Assembly (NCBI GenBank): GCA_965206505.1
Contig: CBDBJW010000005.1
Location: forward strand, 567,596 to 631,595
From: Longimicrobiales bacterium
GTDB taxonomy: Bacteria; Gemmatimonadota; Gemmatimonadetes; Longimicrobiales; Gaopeijiaceae
Reading direction: 5' to 3'
DNA length: 64,000 bases
Position 1 is the first letter of the stretch, and the number at the start of each line of letters is the position of its first letter. This document shows positions 1,579 through 13,592 of the stretch, one piece after another. Below the pieces are notes generated by a model. That model did not search any database, was not told the DNA's origin, and saw only the letters and a program-made list of their open reading frames with translations. The position numbers were made by a program, and so were the translations under genes.

Positions 1579-3048
1579 ATGCCCGGCGAAGGTCTGACCC
1601 CGGATCTGATCAACGAGCTCGAGCAGTACCGGCGGATACTGAACAACATCCCGGCCGAGATTGGCGTTCTCGACACCGATGGGCGGTACCTGTTCAATAC
1701 GCCCTCCGGAATTCGGGACCCCGGGGTTCGAGAGTGGATGCTCGGAAAGACAAACCACGAGTGGGTACGGGAGCGGGGTCATCCGATCGAGATCGCGGAT
1801 AAGCGACAAGCGGCCGTCGATCACTGCGTCACCGAGAAGGAGTCGGTAACCTTTGAGGAGATCTGGACCGACAGAGAGGGTCGCCGACTCTACTACGTCC
1901 GCACGTTCAGTCCGGTCGAAGATGAAGCCGGAGAAGTCACGCACGTCCTCGGATACGGCCAGCAGATCACGCAGCTCAAGAAGGCGGAAGAGGAGCTAAG
2001 GAACGCACTGGCCGAGGTCGAGGCCCTCAAAGATCGACTCCACGACGAGAATCAGTATCTCCGCGAAGAGCTCCAGGCCGAGTACAACTTCGAGGAGATG
2101 GTGGGCGAGTCCCCTGCGATGGCGAACGTGCGTGCCGCGATCGAGACGGTGGCGCCGACGGACGCCAATGTTGTGATCAGCGGGGAAACGGGGACCGGTA
2201 AGGAAATCGTTACTCGGGCGATCCACGCACTCAGCAGCCGGCGTGACAAGCCGCTCATCAAGGTGAACTGCGCGTCCATACCGCGCGAGTTGTTTGAGAG
2301 TGAGTTCTTCGGTCATGTGAAGGGTGCGTTCACCGGAGCGATCAAGGACCGCGTCGGCCGGTTCCAACTTGCCCATTGGGGGACGTTGTTCCTCGACGAG
2401 ATTTCTGAGATCCCGCTCGAGACGCAGGGCAAGCTACTCCGCGTTTTACAGGAAGGTGAATTCGAGAAGGTCGGCGAGGCCAAGACACGCAGGGCCGATG
2501 TCCGGATCATTGCGGCCACCAATCGCACCCTCAAGGAGGAGGTCGAGGGTGGGCGTTTCCGGCAGGACCTCTACTATCGGCTCAATGTCTTTCCGATCGA
2601 CGTGCCCCCCCTTCGTCATCGCGGCGAGGACACCCGGCTCCTCGCGACTCATTACCTCGAGCGAGCCGTGCGGAAGCTCAGTCGAGGACCGAGATCGCTC
2701 ACGTCCGCGGAAGCGTCGCAGCTCCTGTCCTACGATTGGCCCGGAAACGTGCGGGAGCTACAGAATGTGATCGAACGGGCTGTGATCACGAATCGCGGCG
2801 GACCGCTGAGCTTCGATCTGCCTTCGTCAAAGGGAGGTGGTCCCTCGGTGCCCGGGGTCGCGGTGGATACCGAAGCCGACGTGGTGTCCGACGCCGAGAT
2901 GCGACGACGGGAGCGCGACAACGTGCTGCGAGCCCTGGAGCGGACGAACTGGCGCGTCTACGGACCCCAGGGTGCCGCGGCCTTGCTTGAGGTCAGGGCC
3001 ACCACGTTGGCATCGCGGATCAAGAAGCTGGGACTTGGCCGCCGATGA
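1579..3048 (+). CDS. sigma-54-dependent transcriptional activator (PAS sensor - AAA+ - Fis-type HTH)
   Basis: Walker A GETGTGKE, the hallmark GAFTGA loop (HVKGAFTGA), [31 protein letters not shown] and a C-terminal HTH ([18 protein letters not shown]). The N-terminus is PAS-like and followed by a coiled coil. GGAGGAGG RBS. Confidence 0.9.
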
Positions 3049-3117
3049 GGGCCCCCACCTTTGCTTCACCGCTAGCCGTTGGGTATCGTGACGACCCACG
3101 ACCCCGGAGTCCCAGCT

Positions 3118-4479
3118 ATGCGCAATTTCCAACACGTGATACTCGGAACCGGCCAGGCAACGGGCACCCTATTGGGCGACCTCTTGCCAACCGGAGACTC
3201 GATTGCCGTCATTGAAGGAGATCGCATAGGGGGCACCTGCGTGAACACGGGTTGCACCCCGACCAAGGCACTCGTGGCCAGCGCGAGGGTCGCTCATATG
3301 ATGCGGCGTGCACCGGAGTACGGCGTGCAGCCCAATGGGGTCGAGATAGATTTCGAAACCGTTCGGGCGCGCATGAACGCCATTCGCGACAACACCGGAA
3401 TGGCTACGTGGATCCGCTCCGCAGAAAGTGTGTCGTTATTCGAGGACTGGGGCCGATTCGAGGGTCCACGGCAAATTCGTGTGGGCGACGAGAGCATCAC
3501 CGCCGATCGGATCTATATCAATGCCGGAGCACGCCCGCGCGTCCCCGAAATTCCAGGACTGGACGCGGTTCCATGGCTGGATAACAGCCGGGTTCTCGAG
3601 CTGACCGAGGTGCCAGAGCACCTGATCATCTTGGGAGGGAGTTACGTTGCGCTCGAATTCGGTCAGATCTTTCGAAGATTCGGCTCACGGCTCACGGTCA
3701 TCGAGCGGGGACCTCAACTCGTATTTCGAGAAGATGCCGACGTTGCGGAGTCGATCAAGGACATTCTCGAACTGGAAGGTATCGAATTCTGTCTGGACTC
3801 GAGCGCGAGGAGGGTCGCCCCCGACGACGCCGGCGTTGCGGTCACGATCGTTCAGGGTGGCGACGAGCGCTTGCTGACCGGCTCCCACTTCCTCGTCGCG
3901 GTCGGGCGGGTCCCGAACTCCGACCTGCTGAACCTTGAGGCGGCCGGTATCCAGCTCGACGAACGGGGGTTCATCGAGGTCGACGACTTTTGCCGGACCA
4001 GCGCCGAGGGTGTTTTCGCCCTGGGCGATATCAACGGACACGGTGCCTTCACCCATACGTCGGTCAAAGACGCCGAGATCGTCCTCGACCAGATGCGCGG
4101 TGGCACCAGGAGATTATCGGACCGGATCCCCGTCTACGGGCTCTTCATCGATCCTGCGCTCGGTCGTGTCGGATTGACCGAAAAGGAAGCGATTGCGAAG
4201 GGGCATAACGTAACGAAGGCCACACGGCCGATGTCTGCGATCAACCGGGCCAAGGAGATGGGAGAAACGCTCGGGTTCGCCAAGCTCCTGGTCGACGGCG
4301 ATACGGATCAGATTCTGGGCGCAGCGATTCTCGGACCCGGTGGGGATGAGATCATCAACATGTTTGCGGCTTACATGTATAGTGGACTGCCGTGCAGCAG
4401 CTACCGGAAATCAGTGCTCGTCCACCCGACCGTATCCGAACTCATGCCCTGGATGCTGGACACGCTGGAGCCGGTTTGA
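3118..4479 (+). CDS. class I pyridine nucleotide-disulfide oxidoreductase (mercuric reductase / dihydrolipoamide dehydrogenase-like)
   Basis: GTGQATG FAD fingerprint, redox-active GGTCVNTGCTPTK disulfide, second Rossmann ILGGSYVALEF, and the C-terminal dimerisation motif HPTVSE. Start moved to ATG 3118 (MRNFQHVILG), with GGAG 8 nt upstream. Confidence 0.85.
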   Translation: MRNFQHVILGTGQATGTLLGDLLPTGDSIAVIEGDRIGGTCVNTGCTPTKALVASARVAHMMRRAPEYGVQPNGVEIDFETVRARMNAIRDNTGMATWIRSAESVSLFEDWGRFEGPRQIRVGDESITADRIYINAGARPRVPEIPGLDAVPWLDNSRVLELTEVPEHLIILGGSYVALEFGQIFRRFGSRLTVIERGPQLVFREDADVAESIKDILELEGIEFCLDSSARRVAPDDAGVAVTIVQGGDERLLTGSHFLVAVGRVPNSDLLNLEAAGIQLDERGFIEVDDFCRTSAEGVFALGDINGHGAFTHTSVKDAEIVLDQMRGGTRRLSDRIPVYGLFIDPALGRVGLTEKEAIAKGHNVTKATRPMSAINRAKEMGETLGFAKLLVDGDTDQILGAAILGPGGDEIINMFAAYMYSGLPCSSYRKSVLVHPTVSELMPWMLDTLEPV

Positions 4480-6669: not shown

Positions 6670-7329
6670 TCAAAGAGGTGTGGTCCGTCCTCTCATCCAC
6701 CATCGCACCGCCACGAAAAGGGCTGTAGACTCTCCTGCGATCCATCCCCACCACGGGTAGCTCACCGCCGGCAGTGACATTCCCTCTCCCAATCCCGTCA
6801 CCCCGGCCAGGGCAGTGGGCACGATAAATGTCGCGAGCAGCATGCAGCACGCCGCCACCATAAGTGACCACTCCCACGTCCGGGGTGCGATGACTCCATA
6901 ATCCATCGGCCAGAGCGCCCAGGCCGCCACCGACATGGGGAGGGCGATAAGCGAGGGGGCCCACACCGGCCCGACCCAGACGGTGGGGATCAGGAAGAGC
7001 ACATCCGGCTCGAAGAGAGACGCCGGCCAGCCCAGCAGAATCTTCAATCCGGCGTAGTACGCGATGTCCCACACGCCGAAAACGAGCGCGAAGCCGATCA
7101 GCGTCTGCCAGCCGGAACGGGCCGCCGCCCCCGCAACCGCGAAGATCATGACGATGGTGGCGGCCTCCCGGCCGATCTCCACGCCCAGGATTCCGGCGTC
7201 CATGGGCTTCAGCGGGAAGGAGAATCCCTCGGGGTAATAAATGGCGCGAAGGTAGACGACGACCGCGGCTTCGAGATAGCCCATCGCGACGGCGTAGAGG
7301 AGTAGCGCTGTCCGAGGGCGGCCGAACAT
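6670..7329 (-). CDS. polytopic membrane protein, unknown function
   Basis: Hydrophobic throughout, with several predicted helices and high GC3. Start chosen at the internal Met (MFGRPRTALLLYAV). No recognisable family. Confidence 0.5.
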   Translation of the reverse strand: MFGRPRTALLLYAVAMGYLEAAVVVYLRAIYYPEGFSFPLKPMDAGILGVEIGREAATIVMIFAVAGAAARSGWQTLIGFALVFGVWDIAYYAGLKILLGWPASLFEPDVLFLIPTVWVGPVWAPSLIALPMSVAAWALWPMDYGVIAPRTWEWSLMVAACCMLLATFIVPTALAGVTGLGEGMSLPAVSYPWWGWIAGESTALFVAVRWWMRGRTTPL

Positions 7330-7474
7330 CGAGTAGTACCTCCGGTCACGGGGCACGCGGGCTCACGTTGGCAGTGGGGCGCCCAATCTGGTAACGTCCC
7401 TCGGGGAAGTCTAACACTCCGGGCGGGATCATGAACGCGGGCTCTCGGCCGAAGCGCGGCACAACGTAACGAGA

Positions 7475-8005
7475 GTGGACCCGATGGATGTGAATGACCG
7501 CCGAGTGACGACGGAGAGCGAGCCAGGCGAACCCCGGTCGACATCCGTCCTCGTCCATCTTTCAGGGAGCCGGCGGGGGCACTCCCACCGCCTTTCCGGG
7601 AACGAGATCAAGATCGGCACCGGAGCCGGGATGGATCTCCGACTGCCCCTTGATACCGAACCGCTTCCGGCGCCCCACCACGCGACTCTGCGCTGTCGGG
7701 GCGCCACGCACGAGGTGGTGGCGGAGAGCGGGAGCGAGGTCTGGGTAAACGGCGAGCAGGTGAGCCGGTTCACCCTGGCGTCGGGGGACGTTCTGGAGAT
7801 CGGCCGGGACGGCGCTGTGTTGCGCTATCGCGTGTACGACGCCGGAGTCGCACCCTACAAGACGATGACGCAGGTCTTCTCCGACTGTCTCGACTGCGCT
7901 CGGAAATCGGATCGGGGTCCCGTCGGGAGGGCAGCCATGGTCCTCACCGACCTCCCCAAGCAGTTGGCGACCGAAACGGCTCTTTCGTTCCGCGTTGCGT
8001 GCTGA
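7475..8005 (+). CDS. FHA domain protein
   Basis: IKIGTGAGMDLRLP...HATLRCRGATHEVVAESGSEVWVNGEQV...GDVLEIGRDGAVLRY is an FHA signature. It ends immediately before the transmembrane helix encoded by the next ORF (GTGCTGA overlap). Confidence 0.7.
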   Translation: MDPMDVNDRRVTTESEPGEPRSTSVLVHLSGSRRGHSHRLSGNEIKIGTGAGMDLRLPLDTEPLPAPHHATLRCRGATHEVVAESGSEVWVNGEQVSRFTLASGDVLEIGRDGAVLRYRVYDAGVAPYKTMTQVFSDCLDCARKSDRGPVGRAAMVLTDLPKQLATETALSFRVAC

Positions 8006-9069
8006 CTCTATTGGTCCTGCTGGGACTCGGCACCGTGTTGCTGGCGCGCCGGAGCGCGCGGCTCGAACAGAGGCTGACCGACGAGATGACTCGGGTGGAG
8101 GGACTCGCCGAGCTGCTTGAGCGGGCCCGGACGCAGGTTCCCACCGCCGAAGATCTCGGCGACGTCGTCGCCGAACTCCAGTCCGGCGTGTTGACGGCAC
8201 GGGATCGGCTGGATGCGTTGGAAGAGCGAAGTGGAGCGGAGGCCCGGGTGATCCGAACGGCGTCCCGGTCTACGGTTTTCGTCCAGGGGAGCTACGGGTT
8301 CGTCCAACCCGAGAGCAGCCGTCCTCTGCGCCTCGTCTTGGGACTTGGTGGCCGGCCCATCAGGAACGCAGCCGGCGAGCCGGCCATCAGCGTGGATGGT
8401 GAGGGGCCTCCCTTGGAGGTCTTCCTCACAGGCACGGCGTTCCTGGTCAGTCTGGACGGACTCGTGCTCACGAACAGGCACGTGTCGAGACCTTGGGAGT
8501 TCGACCCCGCGGGTCAGGCTTTAGTCGCCCAGGGCTTCGAGGGGAGGATGACGCGCTTCGATGGTTACCTCCCGGGGGTAGCGGAGCGCTTCGAGCTGGA
8601 GCTGATCTCGGCCAGCGACGAAGCCGATCTGGCTCTCCTCTGCTGCGTCGTCAGCGACGAGGCGGACTATCTTCCGCTTGCCGAGGGGCCGCCCGAGCCA
8701 GGTGAGGCCGTGCTCGTCATCGGCTTCCCACTGGGGATCCGGGCGCTCATGGCCCGCACCAATCCCGAGTTCGTGGAAGGCCTCCGCGATGCCGGCGTCA
8801 CAGACTTCTGGGAAGTCGCCGAGCGGCTGTCGCGAGCCGGGCACGTCACGCCGCTGGCGAGTAGGGGCATCGTGGGCCAGGTGACGACTCAGAATGTTGT
8901 CTACGACGCCGAGACTACCAGTGGGGGAAGTGGCGGGCCGGTGCTGTCGTTGGACGGCCAGGTGGTAGCGATCAACTCGGCAATCCTTCCGGAGTTCGGG
9001 GGCTCGAATCTGGGAGTTCCTGCCGCGCGGGCGCGGGAGCTGCTGTCGGCGGTCAGACCACTTCCATAA
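7999..9069 (+). CDS. membrane-anchored coiled-coil / trypsin-like (S1C) serine protease
   Basis: N-terminal TM helix LTLLVLLGLGTVLL, then a coiled coil, then the protease core TNRHV ... DLALL ... TSGGSGGPVLSLDGQVVAINSAI (His/Asp/Ser triad contexts). GTG start at 7999. Confidence 0.75.
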   Translation: MLTLLVLLGLGTVLLARRSARLEQRLTDEMTRVEGLAELLERARTQVPTAEDLGDVVAELQSGVLTARDRLDALEERSGAEARVIRTASRSTVFVQGSYGFVQPESSRPLRLVLGLGGRPIRNAAGEPAISVDGEGPPLEVFLTGTAFLVSLDGLVLTNRHVSRPWEFDPAGQALVAQGFEGRMTRFDGYLPGVAERFELELISASDEADLALLCCVVSDEADYLPLAEGPPEPGEAVLVIGFPLGIRALMARTNPEFVEGLRDAGVTDFWEVAERLSRAGHVTPLASRGIVGQVTTQNVVYDAETTSGGSGGPVLSLDGQVVAINSAILPEFGGSNLGVPAARARELLSAVRPLP

Positions 9070-10033
9070 CGATCTTACCCTGGGCCCTGTTCTCGTCCAT
9101 CGTTGTGTGCGCTTCCCGGAGCTTCTCGAAGGCAAAGTTTGGTCCGAGCTTGGGCTTGAGCTCACCAGATTCAACGAGAGAAACGTAGTTCTGAAGCTGA
9201 GCGGGCGTGAGATCGGACGACTCACCGGCGTACGAGGTCAACTTTACGCCGGTTGGCACGTCGGCCATTGGACGAAATTCCGGTAACACCCACGCACCGC
9301 CGAGAATACCGGTCATGCACACGATACCCCCTCGTCGTACCGCCTGCAGGGAATCCAGTAATGTCGTGGCCCCCACCAATTCGAGGACACGGTCGAAGCC
9401 GTTTGGGTAGATCGCTCGGGCCTGGTCCGCTATGGATCCGTCATCTACGAGCACGTGAGTGGCTCCCGCGGCTACTAGTTCGTCGGCTTTGGTCGCACTT
9501 CTGGTGGTCGCCGTGAGTTCGAGGCCTGCCGCCCGAGCGAGGGCGATGGTGGCAAAGCCGATGGACGATGTCCCACCTCGCACGAGGAGGTTCTCCGCGC
9601 GCTCGATCTCGAGGCCGGTATGGAGCGAGCCATGGACGGTCTGCAGCATCTCGGGCAGCGCTCCGAGAATCTTCCAATCCAGTTTCGTTTCCAATGGGAA
9701 CACATGCTGCCGTGGAACGAGGACATACTCGGCGTATGAGCCGTCGAAGTCTCGCCCCATACCACCCATCATTGCTGCGACTCGCATCCCCGGGGACAGG
9801 TTGGAGCCCGGCGCGGAAACCACTTCACCGACACATTCGATGCCGAGCACCCTGGGAAACTGCACTGTGGGCGACTGCCCCCGTCGTGTGAACCACTCCG
9901 ATCAGTTGAGCCCGAATGCCCGGTTTCGAATCAAGACCCACCCGTTGCGAGATTCGGGTCGGGGCATTTCTCGGAGCTCGAGCTTCTCCGGGCCGCCAGG
10001 CTCTTCGATCACGAAAGCGCGCATCATTTCCAT
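9053..10033 (-). pseudogene. zinc-type alcohol dehydrogenase / quinone oxidoreductase (MDR) interrupted by an in-frame TGA
   Basis: ORFs 9902..10252 and 9053..9865 are in the same frame. The joined reading is MEMMRAFVIEEPGGPEKLELREMPRPESRNGWVLIRNRAFGLN-TGA-SEWFTRRGQSPTVQFPRVLGIECVGEV. Family members normally have FGLNRSE at this point, so CGA to TGA at 9902-9904 is the likely lesion. Confidence 0.75.
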
Positions 10034-10161
10034 CGTCGGTCCTAGTTTCAGGCCAGTGCACCTCGCGGGACTCGCGTAGGGAGGCGGAAGCCGACGCCCC
10101 AGCGTTGCAGCTGGGACATCAACCTGCGACGTTGACGCACACCCCTGCAATGGAGGTCGGG

Positions 10162-11043
10162 ATGACCGATCGTACGATGCTGTTTCGCTCGGGGCTGAGC
10201 CTCGTCTTCTACCTGGCACTCGCCGGTGGCACTGTGGTGGCGCAGGACGCACCCCGGACCGAGCTGGGGGTGCGTCTGGCCGAGAATCACGGCGACGGCG
10301 CCTTCTACCGCGTGGAGGAGGTGAAGCTGCGGCAGGCCCCCGCCTACCCGGCCGGGACTTTTTATGCTCTTAAGACTTCCGACGCCGCCTACCGGACCTA
10401 TCTCGCGGGCCTGCGTGCCGTCGAGGAAGAAGCCGGAGTGACGACCGTGCTCGTGAACGACGTCCTGGGCCGGACGATACCCGGTCGCCCAGAGGACTGG
10501 CCCCCCAAACCCTATTGCGACTGGGACGTCGTGGTGTTGAAGCACTACCCGAACTGGCGGGCATGGGAAATGGTGGAGGGGAGCGCCGCGCAGCAGGCGG
10601 CCGTCGTGCACCGTGGGGCCGCCGTGGAGGGCGACCAGGTGGTGATTGCCGAGGCGCCGCAGGTACCCCCAACGCCGCGGCAGGTCACCTCCGACGACCC
10701 GACCGACACGGTAATGTATGTGGTGAACCTCATCCGACTCCGCGAGGAGGCCTTCTACCCCAGAGGCGAGTATCCGGGCTCGACCGGCCGCGAAGCCTTC
10801 AGCCGTTACCAGGGCGGCGGGGAGCTGAGTACGACGGACCGCGTGGGATTTGTCAGCACCGAAGTGAACGACGCCCTCAACCCTCCCGGCGTCAGCTGGT
10901 GGCGCTTGAACATCGTGCAATACGCCAGCTTGCGCGATTTCATGATGATAGAATATACCGCCGAGTTCCACCACATCTGGCGCCACAAGAACGCGGGCGT
11001 GAGTCCGTTCTGCAGCCCGGCCACTGTGCCGACCCTGCCCTAG
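10162..11043 (+). CDS. secreted protein of unknown function, two DUF1330-like (dimeric alpha/beta-barrel-like) halves; tandem paralogue 1
   Basis: GGAGG 5 nt before the ATG. Signal peptide MTDRTMLFRSGLSLVFYLALAGGTVVAQD. High GC3. The segments VVVLKHYPNWRAWEMVEGSAAQQAAVVHR and WWRLNIVQYASLRDFMMIEYTAEFHHIWRHK resemble DUF1330 C-terminal halves (from memory, weak). Confidence 0.7.
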   Translation: MTDRTMLFRSGLSLVFYLALAGGTVVAQDAPRTELGVRLAENHGDGAFYRVEEVKLRQAPAYPAGTFYALKTSDAAYRTYLAGLRAVEEEAGVTTVLVNDVLGRTIPGRPEDWPPKPYCDWDVVVLKHYPNWRAWEMVEGSAAQQAAVVHRGAAVEGDQVVIAEAPQVPPTPRQVTSDDPTDTVMYVVNLIRLREEAFYPRGEYPGSTGREAFSRYQGGGELSTTDRVGFVSTEVNDALNPPGVSWWRLNIVQYASLRDFMMIEYTAEFHHIWRHKNAGVSPFCSPATVPTLP

Positions 11044-11092
11044 TCATCGCTGGGAAGGTGAGGGACGCCACCATCATTAAGTGGAGGTCGCA

Positions 11093-11974
11093 ATGACTGA
11101 TCGTACGATGCTGCTTCGCTCGGGGCTGAGCCTCGTCTTCTACCTGGCACTCGCCGGTGGCACTGTGGTGGCGCAGGACGCACCCCGGACCGAGCTGGGG
11201 AGGCGTCTGGTCGAGAATCACGGCGACGGCGCCTTCTACCGCGTGGAGGAGGTGAAGCTGCGGCAGGCCCCCGCCTACCCGGCCGGGACTTTTTATGATC
11301 TTAAGACTTCCGACGCCGCCTACCGGACCTATCTCGCGGGCCTGCGTGCCGTCGAGGAAGAAGCCGGAGTGACGACCGTGCTCGTGAACGACGTCCTGGG
11401 CCGGACGATACCCGGTCGCCCAGAGGACTGGCCCCCCAAACCCTATTGCGACTGGGACGTCGTGGTGTTGAAGCACTACCCGAACTGGCGGGCATGGGAA
11501 ATGGTGGAGGGGAGCGCCGCGCAGCAGGCGGCCGTCGTGCACCGTGGGGCCGCCGTGGAGGGCGACCAGGTGGTGATTGCCGAGGCGCCGCAGGTACCCC
11601 CAACGCCGCGGCAGGTCACCTCCGACGACCCGACCGACACGGTAATGTATGTGGTGAACCTCATCCGACTCCGCGAGGAGGCCTTCTACCCCAGAGGCGA
11701 GTATCCGGGCTCGACCGGCCGCGAAGCCTACAGCCGTTACCAGGGCGGCCATGAGCTGAGTACGACGGACCGCGAGGGACTTGTCGGCGTCGAAGTGAAC
11801 GACGCCCTCAACCCTCCCGGCGTCAGCTGGTGGCGCTTGAACATCGTGCAATACGCCAGCTTGCGCGCTTTCATGGTGATAGAAAATACCGCCGAGTTCC
11901 GCCACGTCTGGCGCCACAAGGACGCGGCCTTCAGTCCGTTCTGCAGCCCGGCCACTGTGCCGACCCTGCCCTAA
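11093..11974 (+). CDS. secreted protein of unknown function; tandem paralogue 2
   Basis: Same architecture, RBS and signal peptide as 10162..11043. Differences cluster in the first about 70 codons and the last about 80 codons. Confidence 0.7.
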   Translation: MTDRTMLLRSGLSLVFYLALAGGTVVAQDAPRTELGRRLVENHGDGAFYRVEEVKLRQAPAYPAGTFYDLKTSDAAYRTYLAGLRAVEEEAGVTTVLVNDVLGRTIPGRPEDWPPKPYCDWDVVVLKHYPNWRAWEMVEGSAAQQAAVVHRGAAVEGDQVVIAEAPQVPPTPRQVTSDDPTDTVMYVVNLIRLREEAFYPRGEYPGSTGREAYSRYQGGHELSTTDREGLVGVEVNDALNPPGVSWWRLNIVQYASLRAFMVIENTAEFRHVWRHKDAAFSPFCSPATVPTLP

Positions 11975-12023
11975 TCATCGGTGGGAAGGTGAGGGACGCC
12001 ACCATCATTAAGTGGAGGTCGCA

Positions 12024-12906
12024 ATGACTGATCGTACGATGCTGTTTCGCTCGGGGCTGAGCCTCCTCTTCTACCTGGCACTCGCCGGTGGCACTGTGGT
12101 GGCGCAGGACGCACCCCGGACCGAGCTGGGGGCGCGTCTGGCCGAGAATCACGGCGACGGCGCCTTCTGCCGCATGGAGGCGGTGAAGCTGCGGCAGGCC
12201 CCCGCCTACCCGGCCGGGACTTTTTATGCTCTTAAGACTCCCGACGCCGCCTACCGGACCTATCTCGCGGGCCTGCGTGCCGTCGAGGAAGAGGCCGGCG
12301 TGACGAGCATGCTCGTGAACGACGTCCTGGGCCAGACGATACCCGGTCGCCCAGAGGACTGGCCCCTCAAACCCAATTGTGACTGGGACGTCGTGGTGTT
12401 GAAGCACTACCCGAACTGGCGGGCATGGGAAATGGTGGAGGGGAGCGCTGCGCAGCAGGCGGCCGTCGTGCACCGTGGGGCCGCCGTGGAGGGCGAGCAG
12501 GTGGTGATTACCGAGGCGCCGCAGGTGCCCCCAAACGCCGCGGCAGGTCACCTCCGACGACCCGACCGACACGGTATTGTATTTGCTGTCCCTCGACCAA
12601 CTCCGCGAGGAGGCCTTCTACCCCAGAGGCGAGTATCCGGGCTCGACCGGCCGCGAAGCCTTAAGCCGTTACCAGGGCGGCGGGGAGCTGAGTACGACGG
12701 ACCGCGAGATATTTGTCAGCGTCGAAGTGAACGACGCCCTCAACCCTCCCGGCGTCAGCTGGTGGCGCATGCCCATCATGCAATACGCCAGCTTGCGCGC
12801 TTTCATGGTGATAGAAAATACCCGTGAGTTCTGGCACATCTGGCGCCACAAGGACGCGGCCTTCAGTCCGTTCTGCAGCCCGGCCACTGTGCCGACCCTG
12901 CCCTAG
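12024..12906 (+). pseudogene. tandem paralogue 3, +1 frameshifted
   Basis: CCCCAAACGCCG (AAA at 12533-12535) versus CCCCAACGCCG in copies 1 and 2. After this extra A the homologous reading (TPRQVTSDDPTDTVLYLLSLDQLREEAFYP...SPATVPTLP) continues in the frame of ORF 12577..12906. Confidence 0.65.
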
Positions 12907-12926
12907 TCATAGTGACTCGGGGGTAC

Positions 12927-13592
12927 CTACGCTTCCAGCCTCTCGAGTTGGTGCTCGAAATACCCGCTCCAACTGTTGGGTAGGGCGGTTGCCGTAATAG
13001 CCTTCTTCAAGAGCGCGATGTTACCCCGTTCGGTGGTGTACAACCGCGTGATGTCGGCCACGGCTAGCCCGTCGGGATGCTTCAAGAGCAGCTCGAGGGC
13101 ATCGCCCGCCTGAACCTCTCCCTCTTCCACCACGCCAAAGTAGAAGCCGCTCCGCTGACTCTGGAGAAACCGCTTCGGCATGTCGGCCCGGCCGAAGCGA
13201 ACGCTCAGTTTGAAGCACGGCATACGCGGCTCGGTCACCACTACCCGGGCCGTCCCGACGCTGAACTCGTCGCCGATGTGGATCGAGTCCTCGTCCATGC
13301 CGTCGACGGTGAAGTTCTCGCCGAAATGGCCCCACCCGAAATCGACGTCGGGTAGCTCCTCACGCCAGTACGTATAGTGTTGGATGGGGTATACGTATAC
13401 TGCCTTGGTGGGTCCGCCGTGGACGGAAAGGTCGGCCTGCTGGTCTCCGTCCAGGTTGTGCCTGCGCAAGGCGACGGGGCCTTCCACCGGACTCTTGAAG
13501 ATGCCCGTCGAAACGGGCTGGTCCCTCCACTGGACGGTCTTGGGGAGGCCCACGTTTACGGAAATGACCTTCACCGGCTCTCCATCGCTCAT
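12927..13592 (-). CDS. MOSC domain protein (YiiM-like)
   Basis: VISVNVGLPKTV...TGIFKSPV...DLSVHGGPTKAVYVYP...TEPRMPCFKL...SGFYFGVVEEGEVQAGD is a full-length MOSC architecture. Confidence 0.85.
   Translation of the reverse strand: MSDGEPVKVISVNVGLPKTVQWRDQPVSTGIFKSPVEGPVALRRHNLDGDQQADLSVHGGPTKAVYVYPIQHYTYWREELPDVDFGWGHFGENFTVDGMDEDSIHIGDEFSVGTARVVVTEPRMPCFKLSVRFGRADMPKRFLQSQRSGFYFGVVEEGEVQAGDALELLLKHPDGLAVADITRLYTTERGNIALLKKAITATALPNSWSGYFEHQLERLEA

Follow-up and report, generated by a model that had tools for sequence, protein, structure and literature searches.

A strain-variable tandem array of a probably horizontally acquired gene for a putative exported two-domain DUF1330-type protein in a Longimicrobiales bacterium

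Introduction

What kind of protein is encoded by three gene copies set head to tail, where did the gene come from, and why does the bacterium carry it three times? These questions are raised by positions 10151-12910 of a 64,000-nucleotide (nt) stretch of contig CBDBJW010000005.1 (positions 567,596 to 631,595 of the forward strand, assembly GCA_965206505.1) from a Longimicrobiales bacterium of the phylum Gemmatimonadota. This whole stretch is called the window here. An initial annotation, made from the sequence alone, had described the array as a tandem triplication and had considered several roles for its product. Our reading, to which we give a probability of about 0.6, is that the window holds a strain-variable array (1-3 copies) of a horizontally acquired gene, and that the product is an exported, single-chain, two-domain DUF1330-type protein with a fast-evolving C-terminal domain (C-domain).

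Results

A three-copy array shared between strains

A repeat search of the window found direct repeats at 10151, 11082 and 12013, with start-to-start spacings of 931 and 931/932 nt, and a second three-member direct-repeat family of the array at 10666, 11597 and 12529. The mean column identity of the three units in a MAFFT alignment is 94% at the DNA level. Search and alignment together confirm the tandem triplication with a 931-bp period that had been proposed, with three copies head to tail. Tandem Repeats Finder, whose longest period is 500, did not report the array. No further copies of the gene were found in the window's genome. As annotated before, each copy has its own ribosome-binding site (RBS) and start codon, with GGAGG six nt 5' of the ATG.

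All three copies lie on the plus strand. Copy 1 (10162..11043; GGAGG at 10152-10156) is intact by translation and encodes 293 amino acids (aa), with the predicted signal peptide in codons 1-27 (10162-10242), the N-terminal domain (N-domain) in residues 28-170 and the C-domain in residues 171-293. Copy 2 (11093..11974) is also intact at 293 aa (P0001) and is the copy that was used for modelling. Copy 3 (12024..12906) is disrupted. An extra A at 12533 (CCCCCAA to CCCCCAAA) shifts the reading frame, so that the N-terminal 171 codons and the C-terminal 127 codons are in different frames; the open reading frame (ORF) of the N-part stops at 12827, and the C-part runs in another frame at 12523/12577-12906. 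A protein of roughly 293 aa, which had been assigned to every copy, is therefore found for copies 1 and 2 and not for copy 3.

The same three-copy array is present in two assemblies from other samples, L028 (ERZ26694896, 857-kb contig) and L032 (ERZ25071132), identified by exact-protein look-up, in which none of the three genes is disrupted and each encodes 293 aa. These assemblies represent the same population as the window, and their loci match it at 99.8% identity over 10.5 kb. Each window copy is 99.4-99.9% identical to its L028 and L032 counterpart, in the same copy order; for copy 1 the DNA identity to L028_c1 and L032_c1 is 99.9%. Two copies are found in L007, L008 and L029-L031, and other species have a single copy. 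The array in the window is real and not an assembly artefact, because its copies are set apart by 3-6% at the DNA level and L028 and L032, from other samples, have it with the same three copies.

As for the lesion in copy 3, its orthologues are intact at 293 aa (P0115 in L028, P0121 in L032). The sole differences from the L032 counterpart are the extra A and G12169, which changes Tyr49 to Cys and is private to this assembly. The frameshift, likewise private to this assembly, is either a recent inactivation or a consensus error. A real lesion is plausible because the window has several more broken genes.

A DNA tree of all array copies resolves three orthologous paralogue types. Type 1 is always the first copy. 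Type 2 comprises win_c2, L028_c2, L032_c2 and L007_c2, and type 3 comprises win_c3, L028_c3, L032_c3, L029-31_c2 and L008_c2. Different types are thus missing from different two-copy strains, a pattern that would fit unequal recombination within an older array.

In L028 the first spacer (3969-4069) measures 101 nt rather than 49, with a 52-nt partial duplication of the gene 3' end. We take this as further evidence of probable slippage or recombination activity in the array.

A candidate new branch of DUF1330

Neither Pfam nor NCBIfam gave a match at E<=10 for the full protein (in Pfam, also for the C-terminal piece), in line with the earlier remark that no characterised family covers the full-length protein. 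The gathering threshold of PF07045 (DUF1330), 23 bits, is not reached. The Pfam search itself is sound: a single-domain DUF1330 gene of genome G006, discussed below as a resident of the insertion site, scored 29.4 bits, and distant relatives scored 36-39 bits. The family is small: clustering at 90% identity gives 29 clusters, and only 3 representatives out of 1.84 billion score below 1e-30.

The two halves of the protein are homologous to each other (hhalign E 2.7e-5, 31% identity). They were aligned with ten single-domain DUF1330 relatives, of which four were scanned with Pfam; all four match PF07045 (E 1e-9 to 6e-4), three of them above the cut-off. Against this reference the N-half reaches 98.1% probability (E 7e-14) and the C-half 99.6% (E 9e-24). 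In addition, the family profile matches the Protein Data Bank (PDB) entry of RPA0582 (3HHL/3DCA) with E 6.6e-11 over profile positions 176-281. On these profile comparisons, both halves are identified as remote DUF1330 homologues.

An AlphaFold model of mature copy 2, made with 35 sequences, has a mean predicted local distance difference test (pLDDT) value of 84.6 and a predicted template-modelling (TM) score of 0.84; the model with the signal peptide is weaker. The order of elements, E21-29/H46-64/E67-75/E96-102/H105-127/E128-137, is repeated at 158-263, giving two beta-alpha-beta-beta-alpha-beta units. This is the fold of the dimeric alpha-beta-barrel (ferredoxin-like) superfamily, and all Foldseek matches fall in that superfamily. 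The best is 3hhl_A (RPA0582), with E 1.6e-8 and a TM score of 0.75 on the target. Matches over the full length are only with two-domain members (ChdC, Cld, DyP, 3MCS, 3F44 and 2PGC), at E 2e-7 to 1e-5, TM scores of 0.42-0.56, ~10% identity and a root-mean-square deviation (rmsd) of 6-9 Å. The suggestion that both halves are DUF1330-like, with a dimeric alpha-beta-barrel, is therefore borne out by hhalign, the PDB profile match, AlphaFold and Foldseek alike, and a single copy does model as tandem ferredoxin-like domains. The mature protein, of ~29 kDa, has two divergent DUF1330-type ferredoxin-like domains per chain.

In terms of export, features of a Sec signal peptide cleaved by signal peptidase I are present in 21 of 21 aligned members. 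The criteria were heuristic: a basic n-region, a hydrophobic h-region and small residues at -3/-1, without a lipobox Cys. The predicted signal peptides have 1-2 K/R, a 10-residue hydropathy maximum of 2.2-2.9 and a V/A/W-x-A↓Q/D-D site; one member has W at -3, and none has Cys at +1. For the array copies the putative cleavage site is VVA↓QD. The mature N-terminus is invariant and the pre-sequence is variable, and none of the 21 members has a hydrophobic segment besides the signal peptide. The cleavable-looking signal peptide noted earlier is thus supported, as far as sequence features can do so.

Around 90 positions are invariant in the family down to 51% identity across clades, including the mature N-terminus and two cysteines, Cys119 and Cys284. 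H150-R151 is also invariant, and H275 (>=90% of members)-K276 stands at the equivalent position of the C-domain. Altogether, the array protein appears to be a new, unmodelled, exported two-domain branch of DUF1330.

Comparison with related proteins

DUF1330 proteins such as RPA0582 of Rhodopseudomonas palustris have the same beta-alpha-beta-beta-alpha-beta fold as each half of the array protein, and share with it the motifs (F/Y)Y(M/V)xNLxxxRxxAxYxxG…W…(V/I)xYPSxxAF…HRxAA. Canonical members are single domains of ~95-140 aa without a signal peptide and are presumed to form homodimers. The array protein departs from this description, being a fused pair with a predicted Sec signal peptide and a Cys pair. 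Most members of its family also have, unlike canonical DUF1330, an 8-13-residue insertion in the N-domain. A literature search found no functional study of DUF1330.

The nearest outside relatives (E 1e-8 to 1e-11, 27-37% identity) are secreted or lipoprotein tandem-DUF1330 proteins, for example MBW2586169.1 and MEM7311811.1, from metagenome-assembled genomes of Deltaproteobacteria, Planctomycetota and Actinomycetota. They combine a signal peptide with two DUF1330-like domains, as the array protein does, and are annotated solely as hypothetical proteins. In contrast to the array protein, most of them have a lipobox cysteine and long low-complexity linkers or extra domains (EF-hands, Cys-rich tails). 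The canonical DUF1330 domain is the first in these relatives but the second in the array protein.

Lastly, Cld, ChdC/HemQ, DyP, the "putative monooxygenases" 3MCS and 3F44 and the marine-metagenome structure 2PGC also place two ferredoxin-like domains in one chain as a pseudo-dimer, and some are exported. The likeness is one of architecture only, at ~10% identity and with no sequence-level link; Pfam, NCBIfam and PDB profile searches gave no hidden Markov model (HMM) connection to Cld, ChdC or DyP.

Divergence between the copies

Copies 1 and 2 of the window differ by 22 non-synonymous and 2 synonymous changes (Nei-Gojobori; one-sided binomial p 0.04). The changes are unevenly placed, with 2/440 nt in the middle of the gene vs 19/329 nt in the 3' third (Fisher p 6e-6). 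Among the three types, 39 residues vary and 25 of them are in the C-domain. Under the maximum likelihood (ML) codon model GY+F3X4, the ratio of non-synonymous to synonymous rates (omega) of the array copies is 0.76 for the whole gene and 1.10 for the C-domain. N-domain values in the ML codon model are 0.39-0.54, with 0.54 for the array copies. Flanking genes of the same strains have omega of 0.06-0.32 and synonymous divergence (dS) of 0.06-0.26; dS between orthologous array copies is 0.005-0.02. Judging from these codon comparisons, constraint on the C-domain appears clearly relaxed, or the domain is diversifying. An omega above 1 was considered and dropped: pairwise Nei-Gojobori (NG86) values of 1.5-3.7 fall to <=1.1 in the ML codon model.

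Sites with shared derived states conflict between the three possible pairings of types (10, 6 and 2 sites). No recombination breakpoint between the paralogues was significant after correction.

Horizontal spread of the gene

The distribution of the gene is patchy. Among 11 other genomes of the genus only G005 carries it, as a single copy at a different locus. Named records come from Longimicrobiales, from Pseudohongiellaceae and other Gammaproteobacteria, and from Thermoanaerobaculia, Vicinamibacterales, other Acidobacteriota and Ca. Multivoraceae. The window copies group with gammaproteobacterial genes (100/100) in the protein tree, and the G005 copy with Acidobacteriota. As the two fall in different groups, the gene has entered the genus on at least two occasions.

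Across phyla the DNA is 88-90% identical between the window and L010 and 92-93% identical between the window and L011, L012 and L025. Between contexts only the gene itself is alike, with homology that begins at -9…-25 and ends no more than 13 nt from the ancestral stop codon. The L010 and L014 genes have a GC content of 64% in flanks of 44%, and lie between ftsY and an rpoH-like gene. A metagenome scan added L058 and L059, with 94% identity, identical unit ends and different flanks, then L063 as another new context, and L067 and L068, where clade-II genes lie in low-GC flanks. In all, at least eight unrelated genomic contexts share only the RBS-to-stop stretch, at 88-94% DNA identity.

No neighbour gene is common between these contexts, and no transposase or integrase was found among the immediate neighbours examined. 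Homologues were absent from plasmids, phages and IMG/VR viral contigs, and no Rfam element was found near the gene. These observations point firmly to a horizontally acquired gene that has moved between phyla recently, as the gene alone and without a recognisable vehicle.

The unit resembles integron cassettes in being promoterless and single-gene, with a very short RBS-bearing leader, in occurring in many unrelated contexts and sometimes in forming same-direction arrays. It differs from them in having no shared 3' recombination site, and local duplication, rather than attC sites, accounts for the array spacer. An integron gene cassette was rejected on these grounds, with unrelated trailers between contexts, no Rfam element near the gene and no integrase among the immediate neighbours examined. 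A Longimicrobiales-specific trailer on the gammaproteobacterial insert, considered as a signal of direction, was not significant (4970/5000 shuffles score as high). As for an empty site in Pseudohongiellaceae, the intergenic regions of relatives are too diverged, and only the distant G043 has ftsY and rpoH adjacent.

Three further loci were observed in these comparisons. In L013 (Vicinamibacterales, CBDBKJ010000006.1, 6735-8587) the family gene is split by an insert of ~1.85 kb with a 529-aa ORF that has no Pfam or NCBIfam match. In L025 a distant 275-aa paralogue (6956-7783) directly follows the family gene, with a putative signal peptide (…ASA↓QD) and two DUF1330 domains, the second with a Pfam E of 1.7e-7; 4 kb upstream (1702-1786) is an ALIL pseudoknot, which serves IS3-type transposases as a frameshift element. 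In L062 (Ga0310342_100047205, 3.6 kb) an L011-type family gene is joined to the same remnant of a resident gene that the window lineage has (see below), and window-type upstream intergenic pieces follow the gene in a different order, with no MDR or MOSC. Either the locus is related and rearranged, or this short-read contig is chimeric.

Insertion site and founding junction

The array lies on the opposite strand inside a DoxX-MOSC-MDR operon. In the sister species G011, MOSC and MDR are co-directional and 22 bp apart. The initial annotation had drawn on these redox and detoxification neighbours; an opposite-strand insertion between two genes that are adjacent in a sister species speaks against a functional link, and neither MDR, MOSC nor DoxX accompanies the array gene in any other genome.

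At the same site, G005 and G006 carry a 109-aa cytoplasmic single-domain DUF1330 gene on the array's strand (the G006 gene scored against Pfam above). The 3'-most array copy of L007 and L008, with the end …TLPESSLGR*, is followed without a gap by the last ~20 codons of this resident gene (…KVRDATIIGVWEVDAKHSPD*), with 86.6% identity to G006 over 67 nt. No PF07045 gene remains in the window's genome. The incoming gene, as read from these junctions, replaced most of the resident gene.

The inter-copy spacers preserve this history. The window has spacer 1 (11044..11092, plus strand) and spacer 2 (11975..12023, plus strand), each of 49 nt; an identical spacer had been assigned to every copy, but there are only two, and they agree at 48/49 positions. 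In all strains every spacer consists of the tail remnant tcatcgctggg, 24 nt of resident remnant (aaggtgagggacgccaccatcatt) and the leader with RBS (aagtGGAGGtcgca), the leader reading aa(a/g)tGGAGGtcgca. The 24-nt piece is the stretch with which the resident gene's surviving 3' remnant begins. After the window stop codon, 11 nt are left of an ancestral …ESSLG tail, truncated by GAG->TAG. An 8-10-nt near-identity, TGG(G)AGGTCG, adjoins the spacer junction. The founding junction arose once, because it is identical in every array. Leader and resident-gene remnant were also considered as att-like direct repeats, and beyond the 8-nt GGAGGTCG their similarity is not significant (shuffle p ~0.1).

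The order of events was as follows. The incoming gene inserted on the opposite strand between MOSC and MDR, displacing most of the resident DUF1330 gene. One illegitimate event then joined the first 24 nt of the resident remnant to the incoming gene's own leader, giving the founding duplication. Later gains and losses of copies, which led to the three types, would fit unequal homologous recombination.

At the left junction and copy 1 leader (10028..10161, plus strand), the MDR-proximal part is native intergenic DNA, and 10040-10079 aligns with the intergenic region of the sister species. The leader and RBS transferred along with the gene make up the last ~14-25 nt before copy 1 (…gcacacccctgcaatGGAGGtcggg), and this leader is common to L011, L013 and L007. 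At the right junction (12907..12926, plus strand) the array adjoins the MOSC stop codon, and a 76-nt deletion relative to L007 took out the resident-gene remnant. A scan of the array for sigma-70 promoters and terminators found nothing; such a scan is uninformative for this phylum.

Neighbouring genes

The upstream part of the interrupted operon is formed by MOSC (12927-13592, minus strand) and DoxX (13589-14047/14158, minus strand), both Pfam hits. On the other side, the zinc-type MDR oxidoreductase (9053..10027, minus strand, Pfam) is cut off from MOSC by the array. At 9902-9904 its frame contains a TGA in place of the Arg codon of relatives (GLN*SEW). MDR is split into 185+133 aa in L028 and L032, and is intact at 326 aa in the two-copy strains and the sister species. 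Its decay may follow from the array separating it from the MOSC-side promoter.

An FHA-domain ORF and a trypsin-like protease ORF are separate in the window (7475-9069). Their counterpart is one ORF of 479 aa in L029-L031 and of 417 aa in L028 and L032, and the split is possibly another frameshift in this assembly. In G005 (L040, C1 ~2948130-2949420) a gene for a 222-aa membrane protein lies on the minus strand between MDR and MOSC, and the protein closely resembles the window ORF 6670-7356. With this gene between MDR and MOSC, the intergenic site has been remodelled repeatedly in the genus.

In other family contexts, clade II has a loose setting of DsbD_N-like, sulfatase and HgmA genes. A 265-aa neighbour in clade II was considered as a paralogue and is not one. 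The alpha/beta-hydrolases encoded after the family gene in L058 and L067 were discarded as partners, being only 32% identical over ~110 aa. DUF3604 (PF12228) genes stand in large tandem arrays in these genomes, as in G000 (contig C3 83.5-105.6 kb and C7 1.81-1.87 Mb); the window's genome has ~13 such genes and the L011 genome ~50. The sole DUF3604 cluster of G005 (C1 458-463 kb) lies 3.5 kb from the family gene, and in L064 a DUF3604 gene (1601-3379) overlaps the family gene stop codon. Such proximity is frequent, but it was rejected as a sign of partnership, since it is confounded by the large expansion of DUF3604 in these genomes; an association with this gene family is possible but unproven.

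Discussion

We return to what the protein may do. It would be exported by Sec to the periplasm or beyond. There the two domains may pair within one chain as a pseudo-dimer, in the manner of small alpha+beta-barrel proteins that form homodimers, and a small molecule could be bound, or transformed without a cofactor, in the clefts between sheet and helices of the predicted fold. In this view the N-domain would stay constant and specificity would be tuned by the fast-evolving C-domain, so that an array could offer several specificities.

Several observations weigh against this account. Relaxed constraint fits the omega data as well as diversifying selection does, and an omega above 1 is not demonstrated. 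Gene conversion between the copies is suggested by the site patterns, and only suggested. The family contexts have no consistently linked neighbour, and no operon partner points to a substrate. Furthermore, family genes are often damaged, with the frameshift in copy 3 here, two frameshifts in copy 2 of L008 and the insertion in L013; a gene so often damaged is dispensable.

A wider reading is that the gene is a self-contained promoterless mobile unit (~-25 to stop, ~0.9 kb) that has moved between Acidobacteriota, Gemmatimonadota and low-GC marine Gammaproteobacteria by an unrecognised mechanism, with arrays as a means to keep an exported ligand-binding or protective protein in several specificities. 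It takes up the lack of a plasmid, phage, transposon or integron carrier, the landing of the gene even in core regions such as ftsY-rpoH and, in one lineage, its displacement of a resident DUF1330 gene. We regard it as speculative and unlikely in this full form.

Equally unlikely, in our judgement, is that the products are orphan periplasmic immunity or inhibitor proteins against the exported toxins of other bacteria, where arrays collect specificities and the gene spreads by protecting its recipients. A small exported protein with divergent tandem paralogues, variable copy number, raised omega, gene-only spread across phyla and no fixed partner would suit such a role. The contexts examined, however, have no toxin or secretion-system gene nearby, and the more conserved N-domain with its invariant His, Tyr, Trp and Arg seems closer to a ligand or catalytic site. 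The DUF1330/Dabb fold is not known as an immunity fold.

The initial annotation had named dosage selection or diversification as causes of the array. Diversification of old paralogues is favoured, given the three shared types and a C-domain omega of ~1.1; a recent dosage amplification, with the copies kept for more of one product, is somewhat less probable than a role in immunity. The copies are co-directional, each has its own RBS, and their number varies between strains, as dosage would have it. But the units are 94-97% identical rather than a near-identical private amplification, and the types are orthologous across strains, so that the duplications predate strain divergence. The differences are mainly non-synonymous and clustered in one domain (25/39 variable residues), and two-copy strains keep different pairs.

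We give the same low weight to a haem- or tetrapyrrole-binding periplasmic protein with a mechanism akin to the two-domain chlorite dismutase, coproheme decarboxylase and DyP group. Two-domain ferredoxin-like haem proteins dominate the full-length Foldseek matches (E 2e-7 to 1e-5, TM 0.42-0.56), and a His-Arg/His-Lys motif occupies the equivalent position of both domains (H150-R151, H275-K276). These matches, at ~10% identity and an rmsd of 6-9 Å, are in architecture and not in the active site, and the families have no HMM link. The H-R motif is general to DUF1330, for which haem binding was not found in the literature.

Less probable still is that the gene is functionless, decaying passenger DNA that spreads and duplicates neutrally and is being lost. 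A C-domain omega near 1, the damaged copies listed above and the very patchy distribution (1/11 other genomes of the genus) could be taken in this way, but ~90 positions are kept invariant down to 51% identity across clades, the N-domain omega is 0.39-0.54, and most copies are intact in many lineages. Finally, although ~0.9-kb tandem repeats are prone to assembly error, a single or double gene mis-expanded to three, or a larger array collapsed, is close to refuted by copies that are distinct by 3-6% in DNA and reproducible in sequence, and by the identical three-copy order, at 99.4-99.9% per copy, in the two assemblies from other samples.

We therefore retain the reading of a strain-variable array of a horizontally acquired gene for an exported two-domain DUF1330-type protein. 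In terms of genome evolution, the RBS-to-stop sharing, including a 64%-GC gene that a 44%-GC genome carries between ftsY and rpoH, documents gene-only horizontal transfer with unusual clarity; the usual vehicles do not explain how it took place. The spacer keeps a molecular scar of the founding of the array, which is rarely recoverable. As for the family, DUF1330, a domain of unknown function, is widespread and has solved structures. An exported, duplicated and fast-evolving branch, whose proteins are small, soluble and confidently predicted by modelling, would be a tractable entry point. The spread across phyla and the variable arrays suggest a role at the interface between cell and environment.

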